Shown: positions 35,183-50,252, numbered from the stretch's first letter. The stretch: 64,000 nucleotides of DNA from Candidatus Hydrogenedentota bacterium (GCA_963668025.2 CAXXTH010000010.1:608001-672000), one strand, 5' to 3'. The notes: generated from the letters alone by a model not told the origin. Numbers and translations: made by a program.

Positions 35183-35230
35183 AGGTGGTGGGCGGTACAG
35201 GACTCGAACCTGTGACCCCCTGCGTGTAAG
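35183..35230 (-). repeat. att site: 48-bp duplicate of tRNA-Val 3' half
   Basis: AGGTGGTGGGCGGTACAGGACTCGAACCTGTGACCCCCTGCGTGTAAG identical to 50173-50220. Confidence 0.97.
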
Positions 35231-35330: not shown

Positions 35331-35359
35331 TTGACACATATCGTTACATGGTGTATGCT
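35331..35359 (+). promoter_or_regulatory. Integrase promoter
   Basis: TTGACA-N17-TATGCT. Confidence 0.7.
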
Positions 35360-35361
35360 TG

Positions 35362-35390
35362 AAAATGATCCATGAGTGATCCATGGATCA
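35362..35390. repeat. Putative integrase arm-type sites (TGATCCAT repeats), left
   Basis: AAAATGATCCATgagTGATCCATGGA matches 50082-50107. Confidence 0.7.
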
Positions 35391-35430
35391 GAATGCGGTT
35401 GATCACCGCGAGGCGAGAAAGGAAACAACC

Positions 35431-36708
35431 ATGGGAAAGGTCAACTTAACGGCAAAGGCAATTCGAGACGCCCTGCCTACTGAGCGGGAATATACGCTCA
35501 CCGATCTCGTTGTCCGAAACCTGGCTTTGCGTATCCTGCCTTCCGGCCAAAAAATCTACACGCTTTTATATATGGATCATGCAGGCCGCCGTAAACGCCT
35601 TACGCTTGGCAACGCAGATGTTCTGTCCGTTGCGCAGGTCCGAATACTCGCCAGGCAACGCCAGGCAGATATCGCGAAGGGCATTGACCCTTCCGAGGAA
35701 AAGAAAAAAGCCAAGCGCAATCTGACATTGCGGCAGTTCATGGACGAACACTACACGCCGTGGTTACTCAGTAATCTTAGAAGCGGTAAAGAGGTTGATA
35801 AATCTTTGCGGCGTGCGTTCAAGAGCCTTATGAATATGAAGTTGAGCGCCATATCCGCATTTCATGTTGAAAAAGTACGCGCCGAACTCACGAAAGCAGG
35901 CAAGCGCGTGGCCTCAAATCGATATAGTGCGCTATTTAAAGCTCTCGTAGCCCGCGCCCATAAATGGGAATTCCTCGAAACGAATATCATTGCCGGTAAA
36001 GTATCTCGCCACAAAGAAGACCGGGGGCGTGTTCAATATCTAGATGCGGCAGAAGAGGCCCGCCTGCTCGAAGCGCTCGACCGCAGGCAGAATAAGCAGA
36101 GGGAAGAACGCGCCCGTATGATTGCGTGGGCACAACAACGGCATCTCCCGACGTTGCCCGATCTGAATGGGCTCATCTATACCGATTATTTGAAACCGCT
36201 CATACTTGCAGTGTTGTACTCCGGTATGCGCCGGGGCGAAGCGTTCAGCCTGCTATGGTCTGATATCAATTGGGAACAGAATACCATCACCATCCGCGCG
36301 GAGTCCGCGAAGTCGGAGAAAATGCGGCATATCCCTATGTGCGCCGCGCTACGGCAGGTGTTGGAGCAATGGCAAGCCCAAAGTATGGGGCAAGGTCTTG
36401 TGTTTCCAAGCCTCAAGACTGGCGGACGCCTCGACAATATTCAAACATCATGGGAGCGTCTCATAAAGGATGCGAAGATTGAAGGCTTTCGATTCCATGA
36501 TCTGCGGCATTCGTTCGCATCAAGGCTGGCCATGGCGGGCGTGGACTTAAACACCATTCGTGAATTGCTGGGGCATTCGGATCTGAAAATGACTCTGCGA
36601 TATGCGCACCTATCACCGGCCCGGACGCAAGCGGCGGTGAATGTGCTCGACCGAATTGACAACGCGATCTCGTTCCCTGGCGTGAAGCAGGAAGGTAGCA
36701 CCTCATGA
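35431..36708 (+). CDS. int: Tyrosine integrase with N-terminal arm-binding domain
   Basis: SGMRRGE, K, FHDLRH, LLGH..MT.RY catalytic motifs; AAGGA RBS. Confidence 0.96.
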   Translation: MGKVNLTAKAIRDALPTEREYTLTDLVVRNLALRILPSGQKIYTLLYMDHAGRRKRLTLGNADVLSVAQVRILARQRQADIAKGIDPSEEKKKAKRNLTLRQFMDEHYTPWLLSNLRSGKEVDKSLRRAFKSLMNMKLSAISAFHVEKVRAELTKAGKRVASNRYSALFKALVARAHKWEFLETNIIAGKVSRHKEDRGRVQYLDAAEEARLLEALDRRQNKQREERARMIAWAQQRHLPTLPDLNGLIYTDYLKPLILAVLYSGMRRGEAFSLLWSDINWEQNTITIRAESAKSEKMRHIPMCAALRQVLEQWQAQSMGQGLVFPSLKTGGRLDNIQTSWERLIKDAKIEGFRFHDLRHSFASRLAMAGVDLNTIRELLGHSDLKMTLRYAHLSPARTQAAVNVLDRIDNAISFPGVKQEGSTS

Positions 36709-36855: not shown

Positions 36856-37245
36856 ATGTACAGTAATCGCCATAATCGAAAGGCGGAAAGAGAAGCCGCT
36901 TACGAAGCTATTCCTATGGAATCGACACCCCCCGCCCAATCCCTGTCCGCCGCCAAGCGCCTCCCTCGATACCTAAAAATTGGGCAGGTAGTAGCAGAAT
37001 ACGGCTTGTCTCCGCAGACATGGCGGAGGCTGGCGTTGGCGGGAAACATCACGGCGGTAGAACTCAAAAGCAACGAACGTGGTATATGCGGGAAAACCCA
37101 CTTTGCGTATGATCGCAGTAGCATTGAGGCGTATCTACAAGAAAATATTGTGCGTCCGCCAATACGAATCGATGATCGGCAAGCCGACAGAGAATGGCGT
37201 AAACGCTACGCGGCGGAAAACTACAGGAATGGAGGTAAAGGGTGA
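36856..37245 (+). CDS. HTH DNA-binding protein (excisionase-like)
   Basis: YLKIGQVVAEYGLSPQTWRRLALAGNI...DRSSIEAYL; AAGGAG RBS. Confidence 0.7.
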   Translation: MYSNRHNRKAEREAAYEAIPMESTPPAQSLSAAKRLPRYLKIGQVVAEYGLSPQTWRRLALAGNITAVELKSNERGICGKTHFAYDRSSIEAYLQENIVRPPIRIDDRQADREWRKRYAAENYRNGGKG

Positions 37246-37428: not shown

Positions 37429-37860
37429 ATGAACGCAGAGGCAGAAACCAAGCAGCCCGTAGGGGACCAACGGCCAATCACGGTTCATATCCCATCGCAT
37501 CTTCAAGGACGCCCCATCCATGTTTTCGCAATGGACGAAGGTGAACCAGACACATGGGACGTTATGCCAGACAAGCGCCGCTATGAACAGCAGTGCACGG
37601 CATGCGGAGCGGGCATGTTATTCAATCCCGTCCCGTACGGATTTTGTCCATTTTGCGGCGAGCCGCTAGACATTACTCTCGCAAAAGAGACCACGTGCGA
37701 TGATAATCTGCTTGAGGCCCGGCAGGAAGGTATGCGTGGATGCCTTATGTATATGGGCAACATCATGACGATGTTGAACCAAAGTTTTTATGACAACAAA
37801 CCGGATAGCGATGTAATTGCCGCTCTGCGCGAAGATTTACACAGGGAGTGGGATGTCTAA
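37429..37860 (+). CDS. Hypothetical zinc-ribbon protein
   Basis: CTAC...FCPFCG; AAGGA RBS. Confidence 0.6.
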   Translation: MNAEAETKQPVGDQRPITVHIPSHLQGRPIHVFAMDEGEPDTWDVMPDKRRYEQQCTACGAGMLFNPVPYGFCPFCGEPLDITLAKETTCDDNLLEARQEGMRGCLMYMGNIMTMLNQSFYDNKPDSDVIAALREDLHREWDV

Positions 37861-39250: not shown

Positions 39251-39370
39251 TACGCAGACTTTAGGGTAGCCGAAAGCCGATTGCAACGGCCCGGCTCACG
39301 GGAACCGCCACCCCGGCAGCACTCCGCTAAGGGTGGCGGTTCCCGGCCCGCAACAATAGGAGTGCGAGTG

Positions 39371-40012
39371 ATGGAAGCCTACCAAATAAGCGAAGCACGC
39401 ATAGCCATTATCCACGAACGCGAGACAGCCATCTTTGAAAGCCTTGACGAAACGCCACGTAGTGCGAATATCGATATTGAAGAGTTGGCGGCATGGCTTG
39501 CGAAAGACGCACTCAACCAGATATCTCGATATGGACGTGGCTTCAATTTTAATGTAGATTTATGGGACGAAATTGAACGCGGGACATTCCAGCCCCTTCA
39601 CTACAAAGATGGCATACCAGTGCTTTGCCGCGCCGATGTACGGCGATTCTGCCGCGCCCATGGGATAAGTATTCCGCCCGTGTTTGTCGAAGATCCTATG
39701 CCACGGGACGAGATTATAAAGGAACTGATCAGGAAGGGATTCAAGCCGGACACAGCAAAACACAGCCATGATAGAGCCCGCGCAAGTGGTATTCTTACGG
39801 ACGATACTCCCGCATCCGAAGTAATGAGGTGGATAGACAGAAAGAACCCTCGAAAATACCAACATACCAAGAAACGCAAATGCGCCAGTTGCGAAGAGCT
39901 GAAACCAATCAGCGAATACAACGGCGACGGCCATACATGTAAGTCCTGCCTAAAATTGCGACCCCGCCCCGCCCAAACGCTGGCCGAAGCCTCCGCACGG
40001 GAGCGTCGTTAA
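39371..40012 (+). CDS. Hypothetical protein with C-terminal CxxC-CxxC
   Basis: AGGAG RBS; CASCEELKPISEY...CKSC. Confidence 0.6.
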   Translation: MEAYQISEARIAIIHERETAIFESLDETPRSANIDIEELAAWLAKDALNQISRYGRGFNFNVDLWDEIERGTFQPLHYKDGIPVLCRADVRRFCRAHGISIPPVFVEDPMPRDEIIKELIRKGFKPDTAKHSHDRARASGILTDDTPASEVMRWIDRKNPRKYQHTKKRKCASCEELKPISEYNGDGHTCKSCLKLRPRPAQTLAEASARERR

Positions 40013-40214: not shown

Positions 40215-40466
40215 ATGACAAAAAAAATTCACGGACTTAGCCCAGAAGTGCGGCGCGAGGTTTGTATGCTCTCATTGCAAGACCTCGCGAAGGTTCTGCA
40301 TAGAAGCTATGGATATCTCCGCCGTCGTGTAATGGAAGGCCCACTCCCCGGGCGAATGCCCCTACCGCAATACACAAAAATCGGCAACCGCATTCTATTC
40401 AGACTTGAAGACGTTCAGGAATATATCAACGAACACATAGTGCATCAGCACGTGGTGGGCGAATAA
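40215..40466 (+). CDS. AlpA/excisionase-like HTH protein
   Basis: LSLQDLAKVLHRS...KIGNRILFRLEDVQEYI; AGGAG RBS. Confidence 0.75.
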   Translation: MTKKIHGLSPEVRREVCMLSLQDLAKVLHRSYGYLRRRVMEGPLPGRMPLPQYTKIGNRILFRLEDVQEYINEHIVHQHVVGE

Positions 40467-40469
40467 TAC

Positions 40470-40850
40470 ATGACTGAGCCCATCGACATTAACCGTGCCC
40501 GCCGACGGAAACGCCCTGGCCCAGCGGATTCAATGGAATTCCGCCGTTCCGAGTTATGTACGGAGTACAGCGGTTCGCGCGTGTTTGCAAATAAGTGCGG
40601 CTCGTTTGTGCGGTTCGTGAAAGGCCTCGGGTGGCTCCGTTGGACTGGAACGCATTGGGAAGAAGATCCCGAACGCGTGCGGTGTATGTGCATCGAGGTT
40701 GTTGGTCAATATTTCCGCGATACAGCCGGACAGTACGCGCGTGATGGCGATGACGCAGATTTAATCAAGCATATATTGGCATTTGCCAGAAAGTGCGAAA
40801 GCGCCAGTACTGTTGATGCAATATTGCGCATCTGTGAGGGGTATCTTTAA
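40470..40850 (+). CDS. N-terminal part of D5_N domain of P4-family primase/helicase
   Basis: VRFVKGLGWLRWTGTHWEED motif; TAATG overlap with next ORF. Confidence 0.7.
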   Translation: MTEPIDINRARRRKRPGPADSMEFRRSELCTEYSGSRVFANKCGSFVRFVKGLGWLRWTGTHWEEDPERVRCMCIEVVGQYFRDTAGQYARDGDDADLIKHILAFARKCESASTVDAILRICEGYL

Positions 40851-41893
40851 TGAAGATTGACGAATTTGATAGCCACCCATTTCTTGTAAATTTTAAAAAT
40901 TGCACGCTCGACTTCGAGCAGATGCAGGGTGAACTTCCAAAAGTAAAGCAGCACTGCCAGTCGGACTATCTGACTAAGTGCTTACCTTACGATTACAATG
41001 AAGGCGCACCGGCGCACCTTTGGGAGAGCGTCATCGAGCACGCCATACCAAACCCAGCCACACGTCGATTTCTTCAAAAAAGTCTCGGTTACTCCGTGCT
41101 CGGCACCTGCCGCGAGCAGTGCGCGTTCATAGCTTATGGGCCACCCGCGACTTGCAAGAGCACCGTTTTCGGAACCGTACTTCGTCTTCTGGGCCCATAC
41201 GGATCTAGATGCGCCACCCAGGCGCTATTAGAAAAGCCCGTGAATGGCGGAGCGTCACCCGACATTGCAGATCAGCGAGGCGTCCGGTTTCTCCTTGCAA
41301 GTGAAACGCCGGAAAATGGGCGATTAAATGAATCTCTGTTTAAAGAGCTCACTGGCCAGGACCGTATACGAGCGCGTCCGCTGTATAAACAAAGTATTGA
41401 ATTCGAGGCCACCGGGAAGTTGTGGATTTTGACCAACCATAAACCCGTAATCCGCGACACCACCGGAGCAGTATGGAGACGTATACGGCTTATCCCATTC
41501 GATGTTGTTATCCCAAAAAAAGAACGGGATAAAACCTTACCGGACCGGCTCTCGCGAGAATCAGAAGGTATTCTCCGTTGGCTCGTTGAAGGGGCGTGTA
41601 TGTATATGAAAGAAGGACTTGAACCTCCTGAGCAAGTCGAAGTTGAAACGGACAAATACCGCGAACAGCAAGACACGATTGGGCGCTTTATATCCGAATG
41701 CACGATCCAAGAGCAATACAAGCAGGTGTCGAAAACAGCGCTTTACGAGGAATACGAGAGATGGTCGCGTGACAGTGGGGAATATGCCGTGAACAAAAAA
41801 AAGTTCGGCGAGTACCTGTTTGAGCATGGGTTTGATGATTACAAGGGCACTGCCGGAAAGCGCTTCTGGCTAAACATAGGATTGATGGCATGA
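40850..41893 (+). CDS. P4-family/D5-like SF3 helicase (phage/plasmid primase C-terminal region)
   Basis: FD..P.LVNF.N, YGPPATCKST Walker A, ASE, KELTGQD.I.ARPLY, TNHKP, WRRI.LIPF. Confidence 0.9.
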   Translation: MKIDEFDSHPFLVNFKNCTLDFEQMQGELPKVKQHCQSDYLTKCLPYDYNEGAPAHLWESVIEHAIPNPATRRFLQKSLGYSVLGTCREQCAFIAYGPPATCKSTVFGTVLRLLGPYGSRCATQALLEKPVNGGASPDIADQRGVRFLLASETPENGRLNESLFKELTGQDRIRARPLYKQSIEFEATGKLWILTNHKPVIRDTTGAVWRRIRLIPFDVVIPKKERDKTLPDRLSRESEGILRWLVEGACMYMKEGLEPPEQVEVETDKYREQQDTIGRFISECTIQEQYKQVSKTALYEEYERWSRDSGEYAVNKKKFGEYLFEHGFDDYKGTAGKRFWLNIGLMA

Positions 41894-42017: not shown

Positions 42018-42572
42018 ATGTGCAACGATTACCCAGTTCTATACGGTACCCCATACCGCGACCTAAACAACCATTCCATGATTGAGGTCTGGTGTCCCAC
42101 CTGCCGCGATATGCACCATCACGGATGGCCCGCCGATGCCAAACCCGGCCACCGGGAGCATCGGGCACCGCATTGCCTATCACGTCCCCGTGGTCTTGGC
42201 CAGCCATTCGAGAGCCCGAATCTAGACGGGTATTACATCATGGACGCCCAGGATGCCCCACAGGTTCCCATGGATGCACCGCCGCCCGTGGTGGAAGGGA
42301 GATTATTCAAGCAATGTGGCGAGCTCCGTGTGATGGTGACCGGCTGCCCATTTTGTGGCGGTTCGCATGTACACGGATGGAATCGGCCACAGACGGTATC
42401 GCAGCGGACCTCACATTGCAAATTGCCGAACCGGATTAAAGGCATGATCCACCGGTGGGGCGAATACGAAATCCATCTCAAGAGATCCACCACAGATCCA
42501 CAGCCCCATACGGAGCCAGCACCCAAATCTCTAACCCATTCATCCGCAACGATTTCCGAAGCGGATTTTTAA
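42018..42572 (+). CDS. Hypothetical protein with duplicated CPxC-HxHGW-HC motif
   Basis: CPTCRDMHHHGW..PHC and CPFCGGSHVHGW..SHC. Confidence 0.65.
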   Translation: MCNDYPVLYGTPYRDLNNHSMIEVWCPTCRDMHHHGWPADAKPGHREHRAPHCLSRPRGLGQPFESPNLDGYYIMDAQDAPQVPMDAPPPVVEGRLFKQCGELRVMVTGCPFCGGSHVHGWNRPQTVSQRTSHCKLPNRIKGMIHRWGEYEIHLKRSTTDPQPHTEPAPKSLTHSSATISEADF

Positions 42573-42902: not shown

Positions 42903-43185
42903 TATCACCTCGCTTCGGATGTATATGCGGGCGCATCGAGGGCTTCACGAAGCCGCTGAAATCGTCCTAGACGAGGTGGAGGCCATCGCGCCCCAGGAGA
43001 TCGCCCGTAGCGCGGCGCGCATTCGCCGGGCGCTTACCAGGCTGGCAACCGCCACATTCAGTGAGGCCGTCCGCGGTGCCCAGCGGTGCCCAGCGGGCAA
43101 TCGTGAGGCAAAAGCAGTCTTGGCGGTTGACGGCTTCAAATGGATTGAGCACCGCCGTGGAAATAAATCCCGAGGTGGCGCATGA
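42880..43185 (+). CDS. Hypothetical protein
   Basis: Overlaps both neighbours; ATGA coupling to terS. Confidence 0.55.
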   Translation: MAKKPHPDITSLRMYMRAHRGLHEAAEIVLDEVEAIAPQEIARSAARIRRALTRLATATFSEAVRGAQRCPAGNREAKAVLAVDGFKWIEHRRGNKSRGGA

Positions 43186-43757
43186 GACGACTGACCGCCA
43201 AGCAAACTGCATTTGTGCAGCACTACTCCATCACCGGCAACGCCACCCAATCCGCCAAGATGGCAGGCTATTCCGGCTCCACCGGCACGCTCAGCGTAAC
43301 CGGCGCGGAGAACCTAAGAAAGCCTAGTATTCAAGAGGCGCTCAGGTCGTTAACCGCACCACTCACGGACAAATTGAATACCAACAGAGCGGCGCGCGTG
43401 GCGTATTTGAGCGCTGTAATGCGAGGCGAAGTGGCCGAAGACGATGGCGCTATTCCCGCCGTTGCCGTCCGCGTGAGGGCTTGCGAAATTCTGGCCCGCA
43501 TCGAGGGTGACATGGTCACTCGCATCGAGGCGACGGTCCAGCGTGCGCCCGATCCGCAGTTCGACCTATCGAAGCTCACACGCGATCAAGTGGTGCTTGT
43601 GGAGTGCCTGCAAACCCGGGCATTGGTGAATCCTGATGAGCATAGTCGCTATCAGATGGCAATGCTACAAGAGGAATTCGACAGATGGCCGGATGAACGG
43701 AAGTTGGCTATTTTTGTGAAGAAACCCGAAATCGGCGAAACTACGAAGGAGAATTGA
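43182..43757 (+). CDS. terS: Terminase small subunit
   Basis: LTAKQTAFVQHY...NATQSAKMAGYS...GAENLRKPSIQ (Terminase_2-type motif). Confidence 0.9.
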   Translation: MRRLTAKQTAFVQHYSITGNATQSAKMAGYSGSTGTLSVTGAENLRKPSIQEALRSLTAPLTDKLNTNRAARVAYLSAVMRGEVAEDDGAIPAVAVRVRACEILARIEGDMVTRIEATVQRAPDPQFDLSKLTRDQVVLVECLQTRALVNPDEHSRYQMAMLQEEFDRWPDERKLAIFVKKPEIGETTKEN

Positions 43758-44296
43758 TGATGGCTTATGATGAAAATGGAACACGAATTGATCTACCACC
43801 GGTACAGATGCCGCGTTTCGTGAATGATACCGCCCGGCTTGTGGATGAACAGGCCGAAAAAGCGGGTGTGGCGCTTCACCCTATTCAAAGAATGCGCATC
43901 GTTGAAGATGTTCACGCCTATTGCCAGCAGAAAATCGATCATGGGCGCGCGCCTAGCCCGCAAGAATTCCACGACGCCATTCGTCGCGAAATTTGGCAAC
44001 TGACCCCGGTTGGCCGCAACGTGACGGAAGGCATAAAGCAGCGGCAAGCCGCCGCCGCCCAGGTCGCGGCCAAGCAAGCCGCCGATGCCGCCGCGAAGGC
44101 TGCCGCCGGGATTGAAAACGAAAAACAGGCGTTCCTTGCCAGTGCCCGGCGGGTATGGCCCGGTACTGATACGGATTTTGCCCAGAAAGCTGATGCACTT
44201 TGGGCTGACGAATGCGAGCGCCGCTGTGTCGCGCAGATGACCGGCGCGCAGGCCTGCCCCGCTGGCATACGCCGTGCTTACAAGGGGGCAATCTGA
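43757..44296 (+). CDS. Hypothetical protein with Ala/Gln-rich helix
   Basis: AAGGAG RBS, TGATG coupling at both ends. Confidence 0.6.
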   Translation: MMAYDENGTRIDLPPVQMPRFVNDTARLVDEQAEKAGVALHPIQRMRIVEDVHAYCQQKIDHGRAPSPQEFHDAIRREIWQLTPVGRNVTEGIKQRQAAAAQVAAKQAADAAAKAAAGIENEKQAFLASARRVWPGTDTDFAQKADALWADECERRCVAQMTGAQACPAGIRRAYKGAI

Positions 44297-44676
44297 TGAA
44301 ACCTCTCGATTTTGATGATAAAATGTGGCGTGTTATACGTCAAGACGTATGTGGGATCCTTGATGCTGACGCGGCAACCTTGTTTGGGTGTCGGCGCAAA
44401 GACATTTGGAAAGTTGTAACTGAGTATCCTGACCTTTTTGGGCCAGACATGTGTATCCGCCTCTCTGATAAAGAGCGCATCGTAATGGCCAAACAGGTCG
44501 GAATACGTCCGAAAGACACCATGCTTTTTTTCGTTGGCCACGGTGCCATTTATTGCGCACCATATATCGAAACCAAACGCGCACAGACCATCTACCGCAC
44601 CCTTGTGGAGCACTTCACAATTACCGGTATCGCTGAACTAACCGCCCGGCTGGCCGAAGCAACGAAAGGGGTATAA
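44296..44676 (+). CDS. ORF6N-like DNA-binding protein
   Basis: ILDADAATLFG...V...PDLF..D....LS..E resembles the ORF6N consensus. Confidence 0.6.
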   Translation: MKPLDFDDKMWRVIRQDVCGILDADAATLFGCRRKDIWKVVTEYPDLFGPDMCIRLSDKERIVMAKQVGIRPKDTMLFFVGHGAIYCAPYIETKRAQTIYRTLVEHFTITGIAELTARLAEATKGV

Positions 44677-44679
44677 CGC

Positions 44680-47484
44680 ATGGAACTTGGAACCTTAGCC
44701 ATTCGTTTTCAGTCTGACGGCCTAATCCAACTCAATAACGACATGTCGAATCTCCGCACGCAGGCAAATGCGAACTTCGGAGAGATCACCCGTACCGTGG
44801 GCGCAGGCATGACGGCGGCGGGTGCGGCCATCACCGGCGCGCTCGGGCTGTCTGCGAAGGCCGCCAGCGACTTTGGTGCTGGCTTGGCCAATCTTGGTAC
44901 GCTTGGCGTAACGAACCTGGATGAAATGGGTGAAGCTGTCCTGGATTACTCGGTCGCTATGGGGCAGGACGCATGCCAAGCAAACGAAAATCTATATCAA
45001 CTCGTTTCGCGCGACGTTCCAAAAGATAATTTGATCGATGTTCTGACCGCATCCGCTAAAGGCGCGGCAGTAGGCGTAGGCACAGTGAACGACTCGCTTG
45101 TGCTGGGCACTTCAGTATTAAACAACTACTCCCGGGACATGGTAAAAGGCGCGAATTACACAGAAAAGTTTGAGCAAGTCATGGGAATCGCGGCGTCTGC
45201 CATTCAAACAGGCGCTACCACGATGGGAGAGTTGGGCACCACGATTGGGCGGGTGGCCCCTATCGCGTCTAAGGCGGGCATATCCCTGGAAGACCTATTC
45301 GCATCGGTTGCGACGATTACATCCACAGGTACACAGACTAGCGAGGCGGTGTCCGGGCTGAAGGCCGCGATCTCGAACATCATATCTCCGACCAGTGAGG
45401 CCACAAAGGTTAGCGAGGCGCTTGGGCTTCAATTTGATGCGGCGGCCATCAAGTCTAAGGGATGGTCGGGATTCCTGCAAGAGCTGCAAACCAAGGTCAC
45501 TGAGGGCGTACCGAAACTCGGGCAGTATAAAGCGCAATTGCAGCAACAGGCCCAACAGATGGGGCTTACCGCCGAAAAGACCAAGGAATTGCGCACTCAA
45601 TTCAAGTCGCTTGAGGGCGTCTCAAATGACTCGCTCACGGTATTTGCCAACCTATTCCCCAGCGTTGAGGCCTTAAACGCAGCGCTTGCGCTCACGTCTG
45701 AAAGCGGGGCCAAGAAGATGGTTGCCGCTCAGAAGGACATGGCAAACGGCATGGAATTACTGAACGACCGCTACGGTGAGTGGGCAAAGAATAATCCCGA
45801 GCTTGCGTTCAAGCAGTTGAAGGCGGCCACGGCGGCGCTGGCGATTTCCGTTGGGCAGCTATTACTACCGGCGCTCACGAAGATAGTGAATGTCGTCCGG
45901 CCAGTGGTGAATGCGTTCCGAACATTCACGGACCACACAGGGGCGGCGGGCACAGCTATTGTATCGTTTATTGGTGGTGTCGGGTTACTCGGTTTTGCGT
46001 TTGGGCCAGTGATTTATTCCGCAACGAGCCTCGTTAGCGCCCTACGTCTTATTGCGCATCCGTCGCTGATACTGTCGCTGGGGCAAGCCGCCACCGGCGT
46101 GAAATCCATCGGCGTAGCAGCCACGGCGGCGCGTATTCCGATGCTCGCAATGGGCGGCAGCTTGACTGCAACAGCGGCGACCGCAGGCGCGCTTGCAATC
46201 GCCATAGGGGCGGCTGGAACATTTATCGCTGCCGATATCGTGATGTTCAAGAAGTGGCGCGATGCAGTTGAGCAGCGCAAAGAATCAGAGCAAAAACTTC
46301 AGGACAAGATCATTGAGCGCGCCAAGCAGCTCGAGGCCCAGGGCGTGTATATCGATTGGGCAGCCATGAAGGAAATGACCGCCGATCAGCAAGTCATGTA
46401 TATGAACGACCAGAAGGCAGCACAAGAAAAGCAACAATTCCAAGACTGGATGACACGCACTAACCAGAAAGCACTCACCGAAGAACAAGACGCCCAGCGC
46501 CACAACATCCAGCTAAACTGGAACCTAACCAGCGAAGAGGCCTACAACGCCTCACTGTCTGACGCTGACGCCGCCACGAAACTGAAGCTAGTCCAGGCCG
46601 ATGAAACGCACACGCAGCTTATCCTTGAACAACTCGGTATCCGCACAGCCGAAAGCCGCACACAGTTAAGCGAGCAAGCGCAGGCCGCCATTGCGGCTGC
46701 CGAACAGCAGAAGGCGGCAACTGAGACGGTGCTACAGTCACTTGACAAAAACATAGGCGCGATTACAGAACTCGGAACCGTTGCAGAGGCCACCGGAGAC
46801 GCCACGAAGACCGCCACGGAAACTATGAAGGACGGCTTCCAGGAAGCATCCAAAGATGTTCCGAAATACTGCAAGATCATCACGAGCGACAAAGACGGCA
46901 TCGTGATTATCAAGAAGTCATCCGCAGACCTGCGAGAAGAGATCGGCAACGTGCCCGGCGCTATGCGCAACGGCATGAGTGAGGCGGCGAAATACGTAAG
47001 CCAGTATTGCGCAGATATGAACGCCAGTATCCAAGAGGTGATCGACAAACTCAACTCCATAGACCCGTCCGTGCGGCATTCGCCCTCCATAAACGACCGT
47101 ATCGAGGTGGGCTTATCCCAGATGGGCGGCCTATTCAATTCCGCCTTGGACGGGATCACCTCGAAGTTCGCGAGTTCACGGAACACCATGGCCAGCCTGG
47201 CGGCGTCACTATCCGCCATGATGGGCAGCATAGGCTCTACGGGCTACACGGTGCGCAACGGCGACGTGGTGAAATCATCCAGCGCTACAGGCACAACGAC
47301 CGCCCCGGGTGCCGAAGCCCCGATATCGCCCGTTGGCAACACAAACCCTATCGGCATATACCCACCACAGGTGACCGTGAACATCAATCACCCGGTGCTG
47401 CATAAGGACGCGGATATCAACGTGTTGTTATCGAAGATGGGGCAGATGCTCCGCGCGCAGAAACTCGCTAAAGGGGTGGGGTGA
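44680..47484 (+). CDS. Phage tail tape measure protein (TP901 family)
   Basis: MELGTLAIRF N-terminus, TTMGELG..IG.VAP.A..AG.SLE, SEAVSGLKA core, Ala/Gly-rich helical body, HSPS motif. Confidence 0.9.
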   Translation: MELGTLAIRFQSDGLIQLNNDMSNLRTQANANFGEITRTVGAGMTAAGAAITGALGLSAKAASDFGAGLANLGTLGVTNLDEMGEAVLDYSVAMGQDACQANENLYQLVSRDVPKDNLIDVLTASAKGAAVGVGTVNDSLVLGTSVLNNYSRDMVKGANYTEKFEQVMGIAASAIQTGATTMGELGTTIGRVAPIASKAGISLEDLFASVATITSTGTQTSEAVSGLKAAISNIISPTSEATKVSEALGLQFDAAAIKSKGWSGFLQELQTKVTEGVPKLGQYKAQLQQQAQQMGLTAEKTKELRTQFKSLEGVSNDSLTVFANLFPSVEALNAALALTSESGAKKMVAAQKDMANGMELLNDRYGEWAKNNPELAFKQLKAATAALAISVGQLLLPALTKIVNVVRPVVNAFRTFTDHTGAAGTAIVSFIGGVGLLGFAFGPVIYSATSLVSALRLIAHPSLILSLGQAATGVKSIGVAATAARIPMLAMGGSLTATAATAGALAIAIGAAGTFIAADIVMFKKWRDAVEQRKESEQKLQDKIIERAKQLEAQGVYIDWAAMKEMTADQQVMYMNDQKAAQEKQQFQDWMTRTNQKALTEEQDAQRHNIQLNWNLTSEEAYNASLSDADAATKLKLVQADETHTQLILEQLGIRTAESRTQLSEQAQAAIAAAEQQKAATETVLQSLDKNIGAITELGTVAEATGDATKTATETMKDGFQEASKDVPKYCKIITSDKDGIVIIKKSSADLREEIGNVPGAMRNGMSEAAKYVSQYCADMNASIQEVIDKLNSIDPSVRHSPSINDRIEVGLSQMGGLFNSALDGITSKFASSRNTMASLAASLSAMMGSIGSTGYTVRNGDVVKSSSATGTTTAPGAEAPISPVGNTNPIGIYPPQVTVNINHPVLHKDADINVLLSKMGQMLRAQKLAKGVG

Positions 47485-47905
47485 TGGCGGATAATGCGTG
47501 GATCGAGTGGAACGGCGATGAATGTCTGATTCGGATCAAAAACGCCACCAAAGACAGCATCAAAAAGATCGCGCTGGCCGTCGAAGCACAGGCCAAGGCG
47601 AATATTGAGGAGCCGTTCCTGCATAAGCAAGGCCGTAAGCGCCGCGATGGCCGCGACGCACACGGGCGGTTTTTGGGTAGAGGCGCAAGTGACGAATCCG
47701 ATCTCATGCGCAGCCAGATCGACACGGGGGCGATGATCAATTCCACACGCGCCGTGTTTGACGGCTTGCCTTCCGGCGCAATGGCTGCCGTTATATCACC
47801 CCAGGAATACGCCCCGTACCAAGAAGCTATCCGCCCGTTCCTTATGCCCGCCGTTGATGAGGTCGTTTCAGATAAAGCGGAAGGGATCATTAAGAACCAG
47901 TTTAA
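47481..47905 (+). CDS. HK97-gp10-like putative tail component, 3' end interrupted by IS
   Basis: IDTGAMINS, EYAPYQE, RPFLMPA motifs; native last codons at 49602-49620. Confidence 0.7.
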
Positions 47906-49596
47906 CCTAAAAAAGGCAGTAGGAACTTGCTTTGGGATTTTTCCAGCCCAATTTTGTAAAGAAATAACTGTCCTGTCCCGCTCTTTACGTTGGCGCCGGC
48001 AGCAGGTTGGGGGTGGCCAGCGGCCTTCCCTCGAGTATTTTGGCGAAGATCCGGCTGAGGATCGTCCGCCATCGTTCGTTCCAGTTCAACTGCCGCGCAG
48101 TTGCTTTCATCTCCAATAAAAAGGCGTTTACGGATTTCAGAACTTGTTCCATAGCATGTCCTTGCGCATGCACGGGGGTGATGGTGAGCGTGGTTTGGCC
48201 TCCGTGGCGGGTCTGCTGTCCCACGCCGTAGAGCAGCAGAGGGCGGCTCGTGATCGCTTCGGCGTGGCGCTCCGGAATCGCCAAGCGCACGTACAAAGAC
48301 CACCAATTGTAAATCAGGGCTATGATTCGCGCCATGATTTGGCAGCGCTTCATATCGTGGGTGGTATACCCGCCCCACCCCCACTGGTTTTTCTGTTCAT
48401 CGTAGATGTTTTCCGCATCGCCCCGGTCGCGATAATGCTGGGCCAAGGCCGATAGGGGGTCTGTCAGCGAAGTGGCCAGCAGCGCGTATTCATACTGCTG
48501 CACGGCTCCCGCTTGGATCTCGATGAGCTGTAGTTGGGGGGAGGGGTCAGGCAATAGCGGCTCCGTTTCCAGAACGATACTCCCTTTGAGCTTGCGCCGC
48601 AGAACGATTACCCGGCGTTTGCTCGTCCATCCCATAAGCTCCAGACGGTCTTCCAAACCTTCCCAGCCTTGGCCTGCTGGCGTCCAGTCCTTAGAACAAA
48701 AGGCCTGCTGGATAAGCCGTTTCACGTTGCTGGTCTGCCGCAATTTGAACAGATAGGGCACTCCGCGCGCTTCGGCTTCGCTCATGTCGCGTTCGTTGCC
48801 GAAGGCGCAGTCGCCGCGAATCATGCCCGGCCAGGCCGCGCGCGGCAAGCCATCGAGAAAATGCCACAATCCAGGCATGGTGTATTTCGCCGCCGTCTCG
48901 TTGCCCGGCCGGACTTCCACGTCCAGCACCAAGCGCGTGTTCGCCATAAAATAGGTATGCAGCACATGAGAAGGACGGCCCTGTTTCGCCGGATTGTAGC
49001 CCAGCACGGCCCCTTCTTGATGGCCGAACAGGGGCTTCACGCTTGTATCCACGTCCAAAATCCAAGGCTCATAAAGCAACGGCTCATAACAGCGGCGCAG
49101 GTGCTTCTGTAGCCAGCCCGCGCAGGCTTCCCCGTCCGCCAGTATAAATGCCCGCCGCGCCGAGGAGGCGCTCATGATCTTGCTCATACCCAGCAAGCCC
49201 GGGTTCACCGCGTCGTAACGGACCGCGTCAATGTGCGCATAGCGGGTGTGGCCCGCCAGCACTGATAAAAATAGCGTGCCCAGCACATCCCTCTTGCGCG
49301 GCGCATTATTGCTGGCGTACGCCAGCGGACAGTCCTCCACCCACGCTTCAAAAAGCTCCGCCGTCTTGAGGAAATCGATAAAGAACGCCAACTGGCCAAA
49401 CGGCGTCGTTGCCGCCTCCCGGTCCCATTCCACATGCACCCGGCCCCCGTAGCTATCTACGAAAATCGGCGCCTCCAAAGACAACCATTCCTCCTCTCCC
49501 AATGGGGGAGCATCTTGCTGTTGCGATTCTGTTTCCATGTTCTTTATCTTGAACTACTTCCTGCTCGACACTCAAGATTCAACTGGCGTTTTTAGG
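47906..49596 (-). mobile_element. IS1380-like insertion sequence (1691 bp)
   Basis: Imperfect terminal IRs CCTAAAAAAGGCAGT / CCTAAAAACGCCAGT; 5-bp TSD TTTAA at 47901-47905 and 49597-49601. Confidence 0.88.
47985..49538 (-). CDS. tnp: DDE transposase (IS1380-like)
   Basis: LDVDTS, GYNP.K.G, IRGD, YRDRGDAEN.YDEQK. Confidence 0.9.
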   Translation of the reverse strand: METESQQQDAPPLGEEEWLSLEAPIFVDSYGGRVHVEWDREAATTPFGQLAFFIDFLKTAELFEAWVEDCPLAYASNNAPRKRDVLGTLFLSVLAGHTRYAHIDAVRYDAVNPGLLGMSKIMSASSARRAFILADGEACAGWLQKHLRRCYEPLLYEPWILDVDTSVKPLFGHQEGAVLGYNPAKQGRPSHVLHTYFMANTRLVLDVEVRPGNETAAKYTMPGLWHFLDGLPRAAWPGMIRGDCAFGNERDMSEAEARGVPYLFKLRQTSNVKRLIQQAFCSKDWTPAGQGWEGLEDRLELMGWTSKRRVIVLRRKLKGSIVLETEPLLPDPSPQLQLIEIQAGAVQQYEYALLATSLTDPLSALAQHYRDRGDAENIYDEQKNQWGWGGYTTHDMKRCQIMARIIALIYNWWSLYVRLAIPERHAEAITSRPLLLYGVGQQTRHGGQTTLTITPVHAQGHAMEQVLKSVNAFLLEMKATARQLNWNERWRTILSRIFAKILEGRPLATPNLLPAPT

Positions 49597-49659
49597 TTTA
49601 AAGCGGACGGCATAGATTAGCCCGACACCCGGGCGGCCCGTGATGCTACCCGGTTTTAT

Positions 49660-49700
49660 GCCCCCAGCGGTTCGCCCCCAGTGGGCCGCTGGGGGCTTTT
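49660..49700 (+). terminator. Intrinsic terminator closing the element's late operon
   Basis: GCCCCCAGCGG...CCGCTGGGGGC-TTTT. Confidence 0.75.
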
Positions 49701-50081
49701 GGTGTTTTCTAGGGGATATCCGCCGCACACTTGATCCACTATTGGGTTTATTTTCGGGCTGAATCGAACGGGTCTAAGTGATTAAATATAAACACGTTAC
49801 GTGCATTTTACGCCCTAATCCCGAACGCCTCGGCGGCAATCCGAGATGGGAATGTAGACTTTGGTGCAAGGTTGCACTAAGGTGCCATTGCCACAGTGAA
49901 GCTGGCGGCGCTGTACGCACCGGCGGCGCGGGAGAGGATGGAGGCGACGCAAGCCAATCCAGGCGAAAAAGTAGGAGCTAAGGCTGCTGCAACCTTGCAG
50001 CAACGGATTGACCCCAAAGAAATAACCTATCACTTCGCCCCCCTCACTGGTGAGTAGAATCCACACACCAGGATTCCTTTC

Positions 50082-50107
50082 AAAATGATCCATAACTGAT
50101 CCATGGA
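50082..50107. repeat. Putative integrase arm-type sites, right
   Basis: AAAATGATCCATaacTGATCCATGGA. Confidence 0.7.
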
Positions 50108-50162: not shown

Positions 50163-50175
50163 AGCGCTTTAAAGG

Positions 50176-50252
50176 TGGTGGGCGGTACAGGACTCGAACC
50201 TGTGACCCCCTGCGTGTAAGGCAGGTGCTCTAACCAACTGAGCTAACCGCCC
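50176..50252 (-). tRNA. tRNA-Val(TAC)
   Basis: GGGCGGTTAGCTCAGTTGGTTAGAGCACCTGCCTTACACGCAGGGGGTCACAGGTTCGAGTCCTGTACCGCCCACCA; cloverleaf with anticodon TAC. Confidence 0.98.

Follow-up and report, generated by a model that had tools for sequence, protein, structure and literature searches.

The 64,000-nucleotide stretch that we analysed (the window; Candidatus Hydrogenedentota bacterium, GCA_963668025.2 CAXXTH010000010.1:608001-672000) contains an island of 14,990 bp, bounded by exact 48-nt att repeats at a tRNA-Val gene, in which a tail tape measure protein (TMP) gene is followed by a gp10-like gene (Table 1). Without its resident insertion sequence (IS) the island measures about 13.3 kb. 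A second copy (island 2, the one in the window being island 1) is present in the same genome at tRNA-Val(gac), where the 48-nt att repeats are 94% alike.

Table 1. Features of island 1, in window coordinates
Feature	Position	Strand	Evidence
attL	35183..35230	.	48-nt exact copy of tRNA-Val 3' end; repeat family D2, 100% identical to 50173-50220
29-nt repeat, tandem ATGATCCAT-type motif	35359..35387; copy 2 at 50079-50107	.	Repeat families D1 and D5, 90% identical
Tyrosine integrase with arm-DNA-binding domain	35383..36708	+	PF00589 E 1.5e-30; PF13356 E 7.1e-15; phrog_1 E 2.3e-60
Xis/AlpA-like HTH protein	36856..37245	+	phrog_66 'excisionase and transcriptional regulator' E 2.6e-8; HTH_17 E 4.3e-4, under Pfam cut-off
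HTH_17 (MerR/AlpA-type) regulator, immediately 5' of helicase	40215..40466	+	PF12728 E 1.3e-7, 32.2 bits (cut-off 27)
D5_N + SF3 helicase replication gene, split by frameshift	40470..41893	+	phrog_1156 E 1.2e-89
terS (small terminase subunit), opens coupled late operon	43182..43757	+	PF03592 E 1.5e-15; phrog_51 E 1.3e-20
p180, ORFan; start overlaps terS stop	43754..44296	+	No Pfam or PHROG match
p127, ORF6N-like; ATG overlaps p180 stop	44293..44676	+	28% identical (E 6e-8) to the bona fide ORF6N protein encoded by island 2
Tail tape measure protein, TP901-type, 934 aa, intact	44680..47484	+	PF10145, PHROGs, island 2 copy 94% identical
gp10-like / tail completion (Neck1) gene, native first 141 codons	47481..47905	+	ORF continues into IS up to 48119; start overlaps TMP stop
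IS	47906..49595	-	Transposase 47985-49538, DDE_Tnp_1_4 E 8.6e-19; 6-bp target duplication 47900-47905 / 49596-49601
Displaced last 6 codons and stop of gp10-like gene	49602..49620	+	Read against intact island 2 gene
Strong intrinsic terminator, closes operon	49660..49696	+	16-bp stem, 12 G-C pairs, T tail
attR, inside tRNA-Val(tac) 50176-50252	50173-50220	-	ARAGORN and repeat family D2

Gene content of the island

The two copies of the 29-nt repeat, each about 100-130 nt inward of an att site, are possibly arm-type recombinase sites. The replication gene is broken into ORFs of 126 and 347 aa by a 1-nt deletion at about 40846-40850 (visible as a 1-nt gap in the alignment to its paralogue), and the D5_N profile match is divided between them (3-78 and 85-141). 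That paralogue, a single 478-aa ORF on contig C6, lies in a paralogous island where the pairing of HTH_17 regulator and helicase recurs. A primase domain is absent from the island 1 gene.

The late operon comprises, in order, terS, the ORFan p180, the ORF6N-like p127, the TMP gene, the gp10-like gene and a strong terminator. Stop and start codons overlap at the terS/p180, p180/p127 and TMP/gp10 junctions, and p127 and the TMP gene are 3 nt apart. The sole match to p180 among 1.84 billion representatives was its island 2 copy (78% identical), and Pfam, PHROGs and the Atlas gave no lead to its function. The p127 frame is -1 relative to p180 and is open for 84 nt ahead of the stop. We rejected p180/p127 as a G/GT-type frameshifted chaperone, since neither island has an X_XXY_YYZ slippery site, and the ATG of p127, together with its likeness to ORF6N, ruled it out as a chaperone extension. 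BLASTP of both proteins against 29 TMP-flanking ORFs in seven related loci returned nothing below E 0.03.

The pair at the end of the operon is as the original prediction had described it, an intact TMP followed only by a gp10-like gene: the 934-aa ORF is free of stops, the gp10-like gene begins at 47481, and the terminator follows. The end that had been given for the pair, 47905, proved to be the edge of the IS, which pushes the last six gp10-like codons to 49602-49620. This IS has 21 further full-length copies in the genome (22 in total) at 99-100% identity, and its site is empty in island 2. Island 2 matches the 117 nt around the terminator at 97% identity, and the position of the terminator's 16-bp stem directly after the gp10-like gene indicates that no operon gene is missing downstream.

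Among the 19 island ORFs of at least 83 aa, Pfam and PHROGs gave no match to a capsid, portal, TerL, tube or lysis family; the predicted lack of tube, chaperone, Dit and Tal genes likewise held for these families and ORFs. No head or tube pseudogene fragments were detected in the island with the same two resources. The small ORFans p90, p95, p101, p143, p184 and p180 have no family match. The description of the TMP as an 'orphan' stands, and the integrase, regulators, helicase, terS and att sites, with no head or tube genes, fit a helper-dependent satellite.

Four of the five core components of phage-inducible chromosomal islands (PICIs), taken from the part of the SatelliteFinder definition cited here (PMC10085698), are present: an integrase (PF00589, with att repeats), HTH regulators (HTH_17 and phrog_66), a helicase and terS (PF03592). 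The primase-replicase module would be represented by the frameshifted D5_N + SF3 helicase in island 1, is missing in island 2, and takes the form of a full Toprim/D5 gene in a third island described below. The layout is that of a PICI-like satellite rather than random prophage scrap. Since the TMP is a tail component, a class listed as 'forbidden' in the SatelliteFinder PICI model (PMC10085698), such a model would reject the island, which is thus not a PICI in that strict sense.

The tape measure and gp10-like proteins

The TMP matched PF10145 (PhageMin_Tail) over residues 93-273 with an E-value of 1.1e-24 (87.8 bits, against a cut-off of 33.2), and its island 2 counterpart did so at E 3.8e-25. 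It also matched 15 PHROG families, 14 of which are named tail length tape measure protein (best E 1.2e-35), and contains three hydrophobic segments (residues 382-403, 421-452 and 498-524). Full-length relatives (P0002-P0004; 979-990 aa) are 35% identical and align over 90-99% of the query, P0002 being encoded on a contig of 15.4 kb, and the nearest phage TMPs are just 36-48% identical, over the N-terminal part alone. PDB sequences yielded no match. TMPs fix tail length at about 0.15 nm per residue, and 934 residues would correspond to a tail of about 140 nm.

TMP genes are usually preceded by frameshifted chaperone genes and a tube gene and followed by Dit and Tal. This arrangement is present in the related phage contig L016, whereas the island TMP lies outside it, with an ORFan and an ORF6N-like gene upstream (and no slippery site) and the gp10-like gene and terminator alone downstream. 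In the whole genome (93.75% complete), PF10145 genes number two, each inside an island of this type, and neither the capsid family PF05065 nor the portal family PF04860 was matched. No helper phage was pinpointed; this, and the lack of any other TMP or HK97-type capsid or portal match in the genome, counts against the satellite reading.

The gp10-like protein matched phrog_5 ('tail completion or Neck1 protein') weakly, at E 1.7e-5; remote prophage proteins (14-21% identical) at the same position in related genomes matched it at E 4.8e-10 and 4.3e-9. Pfam HK97-gp10_like (PF04883) matched one of seven family members at a non-significant E-value of 0.03, so that the gp10 label stands on PHROG and synteny. 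Genes that occupy the tail-completion position in four phage contigs share 38-48% identity with it, the one in L016 among them (38%, E 3e-32). In the island proteins there is a basic insertion, about 19 residues long, which all three close phage homologues lack.

An AF2 model of the gp10-like protein, of low confidence (mean pLDDT 54.3), places a long N-terminal helix, a loop with short strands and a long C-terminal helix in that order. Searches of the PDB gave no sequence match and no Foldseek match at E <= 0.001 (best E 2.1); Foldseek in BFVD reached a best E of 0.18, and 7 of the 50 weak matches listed named the HK97 gp10 family. In 80alpha/SaPI1 virions, as described in the part of the report by Kizziah et al. 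cited here (bioRxiv 10.1101/2024.12.10.627806), a single tail completion protein (TCP) monomer attaches to the N-termini (residues 1-37) of three TMPs and caps the DNA end, and this TCP is described as the equivalent of HK97 gp10, lambda gpZ and SPP1 gp16.1. The order of secondary structure in our low-confidence model agrees with that description. The 80alpha protein gp51 (TCP) and the N-termini of gp56 (TMP) form one physical neck unit, to which the pair kept by the island would correspond; both proteins are phage-encoded and borrowed by SaPI1, whereas the island encodes its own (bioRxiv 10.1101/2024.12.10.627806).

Complex prediction with one gp10-like chain and three copies of TMP residues 1-90 gave a score of 0.33 (runs 0.40, 0.33 and 0.30) against 0.00 for the best of three controls, in a job whose own alignments and multi-copy set-up differ from those of the calibration. 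The runs agreed in at least 50% of contacts, with partner pLDDT of at least 61. In the calibration, 116 of the 157 solved complexes passed the mark, as did 2 of the 215 mismatched pairs; scores of 0.60 or below accounted for 18 of the 157 solved complexes and for both passing mismatches. As a like complex has already been solved, the pass may reflect likeness. The prediction lends weak support to a gp10-like protein that would bind a trimer of TMP N-termini.

Selection, gene order and related islands

Island 2 retains a 934-aa TMP (94% amino acid identity) and an intact 148-aa gp10-like protein (82%). Neutral evolution of the TMP, named beforehand as an outcome that would refute the original prediction, was not seen: in this single pair of copies dN/dS was 0.19 for the TMP and 0.185 for the gp10-like gene (at dS 0.73), with a synonymous excess in both (Fisher P 4e-30 and 4e-12, respectively). 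Values for TMP codons 1-400 ranged from 0.06 to 0.16 at dS 0.13-0.64; codons 501-934 are near-identical (three synonymous and three non-synonymous changes) and therefore uninformative on selection. The TMP and the gp10-like gene are under purifying selection.

Both copies are damaged. Island 1 has the frameshifted helicase and the IS in the last gp10-like codons, and in island 2 there are three transposase genes, the replication module is missing and terS lacks its first 32 codons. The ORFs that had suggested a 'swapped replication module' in island 2 turned out to be the transposases. Given this recent damage, neither copy is probably fully mobilisable at present. The damage counts against the satellite reading, as do the weak gp10/TCP label and the 36-48% identity of the nearest phage TMPs.

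The nearest relatives of the TMP and of the gp10-like gene share the phage contigs L016, L017, L018 and L020. In all four, the gp10-like gene is found upstream of the TMP gene at a distance of about 2.3-2.4 kb, with other genes between them (in L016, the tube gene among these). The tail-completion position is held by the phage homologues and not by the island gene, which comes after the TMP. The adjacent, reversed pair of the island must accordingly have been assembled, since its order is not attainable from the phage order by deletion alone. Both genes derive from one siphovirus lineage and were later rearranged into an adjacent pair.

Islands of this type were found three times among 135 genomes of the phylum. 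The third (locus L094), from the same order and another family, encodes an integrase, a ParB-like HTH protein, DUF1580, an 846-aa Toprim/D5 primase-helicase, a Mu F-like protein, an HTH protein and the N-terminus of a TMP, which lies at the contig end; no head or tube gene occurs between primase-helicase and TMP. A planctomycete host, which DUF1580 had suggested, was rejected, since named DnaB relatives with 63-70% identity belong to Candidatus Hydrogenedentes or Hydrogenedentota. Order- and phylum-wide searches yielded genome G131 as the sole addition, and in that genome (63% complete) the rest of the TMP and any gp10-like gene were not found. A search of genome contigs returned four loci, one with head genes upstream and the others short or weak, and a search of metagenome contigs returned two. 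Scans of viral contigs gave no relatives of the island with terS and two phage contigs, both unrelated, with the helicase. Across 65 loci screened with tblastn, a helicase or primase adjoined a TMP in none but those of this genome.

These data bear on whether the pair is instead the leftover of a decaying siphovirus prophage, devoid of present function and conserved through youth or past selection. The genome is rich in IS elements (22 copies of this one), both islands have IS insertions or deletions and one a frameshift, and the two genes are plainly of phage descent, all as a remnant would predict. However, deletion from the order of the four phage contigs could not have produced TMP-then-gp10; the gene junctions overlap and a terminator closes the operon, with no head or tube fragments detected; and an equal reduced gene set occupies two tRNA-Val genes at dS up to 0.73 with dN/dS about 0.19. 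The similar reduced layout of the third island, in another family, also speaks against a remnant, which we regard as unlikely.

A possible contribution to chimeric tails

We propose, with moderate confidence, that the TMP and gp10-like genes are the final late-operon genes of a PICI-like phage satellite and supply the lumen and neck proteins of chimeric tails. Infection by a siphovirus helper, or its induction, would lead to excision of the island via the integrase and the Xis-like HTH protein, and the D5-type helicase would replicate it. The island TerS would divert packaging to island DNA. The island would then provide tail-lumen and neck proteins, namely a TMP trimer setting tail length and a TCP capping the TMP N-termini and the DNA end, while the helper would contribute tube, terminator, tip, capsid and TerL, so that tails would be chimeric as in the Vibrio PLEs. 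That the island depends on a helper, that its proteins enter virions and that it gains from this are what we infer from its genes.

Chimeric satellite tails as such are already known from PLEs: in the part of the account by Mathur, Boyd et al. cited here (Nature 2026, PMC12987554), TMPs encoded by PLEs become part of chimeric tails, and deletion of tmp lowers transduction by 96-99.9%. Like the island, the Vibrio cholerae PLEs are described there as integrated satellites with their own TMP and without tube or fibre genes. They are parasites of myoviruses and carry the TMP with a tail assembly chaperone and a baseplate hub, whereas the island pairs a TMP of siphovirus lineage with a tail-completion-type protein (PMC12987554). 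The island, known from its genes alone, further differs from the PLEs in having no recognisable chaperone or hub, unrelated sequences and a different host phylum; that PLEs carry a chaperone and the island has none recognisable counts against the satellite reading.

The original prediction had offered two options, templating of chimeric tails or a dominant-negative decoy. By analogy with the PLE precedent (PMC12987554), the former is the better supported, whereas the decoy found no specific support. As a decoy, the island TMP, with or without the gp10-like protein, would be a scaffold that poisons helper tails and so shields the host population instead of aiding transfer of the island. Tails are indeed a known target of satellites, in that PLE11 Rta stops ICP1 tail assembly via its TMP (as outlined in PMC12987554) and PICI-borne Tai systems also stop tail assembly (as outlined in PMC11364771); the basic insertion of about 19 residues could, moreover, change neck function. 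Yet a full-length 934-aa TMP, most tightly constrained over its N-terminal 400 codons and accompanied by a cognate partner, goes beyond what a decoy needs. The TMP also shares an operon with terS, a transfer function, and the PLE TMP is reported to be structural and required for transduction (PMC12987554). A decoy therefore seems to us quite unlikely.

A further alternative follows the self-immunity logic shown for PLE11 in the same account (PMC12987554): an unrecognised small, Rta-like inhibitor of the helper TMP would be combined with a resistant TMP and TCP, so that tails form for island particles only. Several small ORFans without a family match (p90, p95, p101, p143, p184 and p180) could hold such an inhibitor, but none is a candidate with supporting evidence, and Rta is described as confined to one PLE variant whereas tmp is general in PLEs (PMC12987554). 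We consider this very unlikely.

Two other groups of satellites resemble the island in part. The EPIPs of Mycolicibacterium aichiense are, in the part of the report cited here (bioRxiv Dec 2025, PMC12822802), satellites of small size that carry terS and a TMP along with neck-type proteins, as in the island, and their tails are altered in length relative to those of the helper. They have a serine integrase and adaptor, stopper, scaffold and major capsid protein genes (PMC12822802), whereas the integrase of the island is a tyrosine one, its helicase is of D5 type, head genes are missing and its neck gene is of TCP rather than adaptor or stopper type. With PICIs, as defined in the part of de Sousa et al. 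(2023, PMC10085698) cited here, it shares an integrase, an alpA/merR-type regulator, a putative replication module and terS in order, a length near the usual size range, and the absence of capsid, portal and lysis genes. It differs from them in that no capsid-morphogenesis gene is recognised and a tail component is added (PMC10085698).

Within the chimeric-tail reading we tentatively suggest, as an unlikely but specific form of it, a 'tail-core cartridge' that would provide lumen and neck proteins alone (a TMP trimer and a capping, DNA-docking TCP), drawn from two non-adjacent phage genes. The lumen swap would mark helper-built tails as the satellite's, and the basic TCP insertion might adapt docking or ejection of the DNA end or exclude helper heads. 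As such a cartridge has no chaperone of its own, the helper's chaperone would have to accept the foreign TMP. If true, chimeric tails would have evolved independently a second time, by a simpler route than through the TMP, chaperone and hub of PLEs.

Before 2025 satellites were believed to use helper tails unaltered, and PLEs and EPIPs have since shown satellite TMPs (in the parts of PMC12987554 and PMC12822802 cited here). The island adds Hydrogenedentota, a phylum that has hardly been studied, to the range of satellite TMPs, in a gene set that is different and smaller. If the chimeric-tail reading were confirmed, replacement of the tail core would be a recurrent satellite strategy, satellite finders should no longer bar TMP-bearing elements, and the island would make it possible to ask, in a natural system, which TMP contacts tube assembly requires.

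We also observed parts of the island in Logan contigs. Apparent joints at 50245, 50176 and 35186 were rejected as excision or circular forms, as they correspond to other tRNA genes. In run X5, labelled as a wastewater metagenome, there are short contigs with about 90-96% likeness to parts of the island, covering the p127/TMP junction and the TMP 3' end among others; given their low depth, these do no more than hint at a third island variant. An IS-less junction joining 47899 to 49596 is present in runs X1 and X3, consistent with island 2.

Organization of the island and its tape measure gene

Island 1, the att-bounded element of the window, spans 14,990 bp (∼13.3 kb without its insertion sequence, or IS) between exact 48-nt direct repeats (35183-35230 and 50173-50220) that correspond to the 3' end of tRNA-Val(tac) (50176-50252). 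Its own genes all run in the + direction. Some 100-130 nt inside each att site is a 29-nt repeat carrying a tandem ATGATCCAT-type motif (35359-35387, where it overlaps the integrase start codon, and 50079-50107); these may be arm-type recombinase sites. Three ORFans (42018-42572, 37429-37860 and 39281-40012), none of which matches a family, contain paired CxxC motifs and may be zinc-ribbon proteins; a 184-aa member of this group carries two copies of a CPxC...H.HGW-like unit.

Features of island 1 and amino acid identity to their counterparts in island 2
Feature	Coordinates	Strand	Remarks	Identity to island 2
Tyrosine integrase	35383-36708	+	arm-binding domain	97%
Xis/AlpA-like HTH protein	36856-37245	+
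Several small unknowns, ParB-like HTH protein		+	between Xis/AlpA-like gene and HTH_17 regulator
HTH_17 regulator	40215-40466	+
D5_N/SF3 helicase	40470-41893	+	followed by further unknowns
Small terminase (terS)	43182-43757	+	PF03592, E 1.5e-15	94% (residues 33-187)
p180		+		78%
p127		+		45%
Tape measure protein (TMP)	44680-47484	+	934 aa, frame uninterrupted	94% (both 934 aa)
gp10-like gene	start 47481	+	start overlaps TMP stop	82% (island 2 copy intact, 148 aa)
Insertion sequence	47906-49595		1,690 bp, 6-bp target duplication on both sides
Transposase	47985-49538	-	within the IS
Terminator	49660-49696		16-bp stem, directly 3' of original gp10-like gene end

The late genes, from terS through p180, p127 and TMP to the gp10-like gene (a candidate tail completion protein, TCP or Neck1), are joined by stop/start overlaps or a 3-nt gap and are predicted to be translationally coupled. 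The TMP matches PF10145 (PhageMin_Tail; E 1.1e-24), scoring 87.8 bits where the cut-off is 33.2, and has three hydrophobic segments within residues 382-524. Of the 15 PHROG families that it matches (best E 1.2e-35), 14 carry the name tail length tape measure protein. The gp10-like protein matched phrog_5 (‘tail completion or Neck1 protein’) at E 1.7e-5 and no Pfam family, and its label is weak. The original prediction of an intact TMP followed only by a gp10-like gene, with no tube, chaperone, Dit or Tal, was nevertheless borne out: the TMP frame contains no stops, and none of the 19 ORFs of at least 83 aa between the att sites matched a tube, chaperone, Dit, Tal, capsid, portal, TerL or lysis family in Pfam or PHROGs, with the caveat, beyond the weak label, that the gp10-like gene is clipped.

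The clipping is due to the IS, which splits the gene at 47906 and displaces only its last six codons (now at 49602-49620). The terminator immediately past the original gene end argues that the module is complete as it stands, its 3' end having lost no tail gene. The genome carries 22 full-length copies of the IS (DDE_Tnp_1_4 transposase), this one included, at 99-100% identity, a sign of a recent burst in which mobile elements are being actively disrupted.

p180 is an ORFan: searched against 1.84 billion representatives, it matched nothing but its own paralogue. p127 shares 28% identity (E 6e-8) with a bona fide ORF6N protein and is a diverged member of that domain family. A lambda G/GT-style frameshift between p180 and p127 was rejected, with no slippery site found in either island.

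Phage relatives and related loci

The nearest non-self full-length relatives of the TMP are 35% identical, and the protein is isolated in sequence space. Four IMG/VR contigs (L016, L017, L018 and L020) hold its best phage relatives, which align over the N-terminal 416-625 residues with 36-48% identity. For the gp10-like protein, a set of 5.8 billion proteins yielded only six relatives; its phage homologues come from the same four contigs (38-48% identity), and a basic insertion of ∼19 residues in the island proteins is not found in the three close phage homologues. Each of the four contigs has its gp10-like gene upstream of the TMP gene, at a distance of ∼2.3-2.4 kb; in L016 a tube protein and two small ORFs separate the two, and Dit and fibre-like proteins come after the TMP. 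Because the island has the TMP first and the gp10-like gene second, deletion alone cannot produce its arrangement. By these comparisons, two non-adjacent genes of a single phage lineage were joined in the island.

The host belongs to Candidatus Hydrogenedentota: a neighbouring DnaB shares 63-70% identity with proteins assigned by name to that phylum. TMP matches at E <= 1e-12 occur in 8 of 135 genomes of the phylum. In the three of these whose loci were inspected (G019, G028 and G030), the TMP belongs to an ordinary prophage tail module; three islands of the TMP-bearing type were found. The third, contig L094, is an independent case from a 63% complete genome of the same order and a different family. 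Along it, an integrase, a ParB-like HTH protein and DUF1580 come before an 846-aa Toprim/D5_N primase-helicase; next is a Mu F-like protein with unknowns of 184 aa before it and 113 aa after it, then an HTH protein, and last a TMP N-terminus with 35% identity to the island TMP, at which the contig stops; the remaining TMP part and a gp10 homologue were not found in that 63% complete assembly. The Mu F-like (minor head/head morphogenesis) gene, at 8028-8780 between primase-helicase and TMP, adds another virion component taken up by a satellite-like element.

Two other loci are of note. A prophage TMP in G028 (L091, 2319-4871, contig C580) matches the island TMP model at 1-68 and 385-940 and not over the PhageMin_Tail core between, a pattern that suggests modular exchange within TMPs. 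On contig C6 of the island's own genome, a ∼19-kb island at tRNA-Pro (∼88.5-107.7 kb) with a related integrase (38%) holds the same HTH_17 and D5 helicase pair as island 1, no terS or TMP, 2,161-aa and 442-aa ORFs without a family match, and an HTH-Peptidase_M78 gene.

A paralogous island: damage and selection

Island 2 (L009 5174-19968; ∼14.7 kb) lies on the same contig at tRNA-Val(gac), between 48-nt att repeats that are 94% alike, and shows the empty site for the IS that clips the gp10-like gene of island 1. It is heavily damaged, with three different transposase genes, the regulation and replication segment wholly gone, and terS lacking its first 32 codons. An ORF6N protein adjoins its integrase and a HigB/HigA pair lies just inside attR. 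In island 1, a 1-nt deletion splits the D5_N domain of the helicase, as compared with the intact 478-aa paralogue on contig C6. With both copies damaged, the element may already be dead in this genome.

Between this one pair of copies, dN/dS is 0.19 for the TMP (0.06-0.16 in codons 1-400, where dS is 0.13-0.64), 0.185 for the gp10-like gene (dS 0.73) and 0.19 for the integrase, with a synonymous excess in each (Fisher P 4e-30, 4e-12 and 2e-11, respectively). TMP codons 501-934 (46180-47484 versus L009 15275-16579) differ by only six substitutions in all, against a dS of 0.13-0.64 in codons 1-500; that half of the gene is therefore uninformative on selection, and the pattern suggests recent recombination or gene conversion between the islands. 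A prophage remnant without function, for which the damage to both copies speaks, is an unlikely reading of genes that show this synonymous excess and an order that deletion does not explain.

A proposed satellite-encoded tail core

The reported neck of 80alpha/SaPI1 contains a single tail completion protein monomer, equated by its authors with HK97 gp10, lambda gpZ and SPP1 gp16.1, which caps the DNA end, binds the N-termini (residues 1-37) of three TMP copies and makes few outer-ring contacts (bioRxiv 10.1101/2024.12.10.627806). By analogy, the island would keep precisely the assembly that occupies the tail lumen. PLE satellites are described as building their own TMP, plus a chaperone and hub protein, into chimeric tails, with tmp deletion lowering transduction by 96-99.9% (Mathur, Boyd et al., PMC12987554). 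Framed by these two precedents, we put at about even the chance that island 1 is a helper-dependent, PICI-like satellite that would supply the tail core (TMP and TCP) and take all else from a putative siphovirus helper. Counting against this reading are the lack of a known helper, with no TMP beyond those of the two islands and no HK97-type capsid or portal matched in this genome, the damage to both copies, the absence of a recognisable chaperone in the island, the finding of three islands only, and estimates of selection drawn from one pair.

The gp10-like protein, modelled as a complex with three TMP N-terminal fragments (residues 1-90), scored 0.33 (runs 0.40, 0.33 and 0.30; best of three controls, 0.00), from a multi-copy job with its own alignments that differs from the calibration, in which 116 of 157 solved complexes reached the mark, against 2 of 215 mismatched pairs; passing scores of 0.60 or less came from only 18 of the 157 and from both mismatches. 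Runs shared at least 50% of contacts, with partner pLDDT of at least 61. The prediction weakly supports the pair, and its pass may reflect likeness to a solved complex of this kind. The gp10-like monomer model is poor (pLDDT 54.3) and gave no significant match in fold searches; its helix-loop-strands-helix order is that of the published tail completion protein description. The PLE deletion phenotype would fit a working tail part; that the TMP is instead a dominant-negative decoy, also offered in the original prediction, we consider quite improbable. Pairing of the TMP with an unrecognised anti-TMP factor for self-immunity strikes us as a long shot.

As for the helper-dependent satellite reading, the five core components of the PICI standard as set out in PMC10085698 provide a comparison: island 1 shares the integrase, regulator and terS and has a replication gene, here a frameshifted D5_N/SF3 helicase with no primase domain, whereas it has no recognised capsid-morphogenesis gene and its TMP is a tail component ‘forbidden’ in that model. 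It is thus PICI-like, yet no PICI by that model. Its tail strategy would work like that of PLEs, although the two have no genes in common. Satellite-encoded TMPs are already known from PLEs and from EPIP satellites of Mycolicibacterium, reported to have longer tails (PMC12822802), and putative tmp genes are indicated for PLE-like elements and cf-PICIs (PMC12987554, Extended Data Fig. 10 legend); what is new here is a tail gene set different from, and smaller than, that of PLEs.
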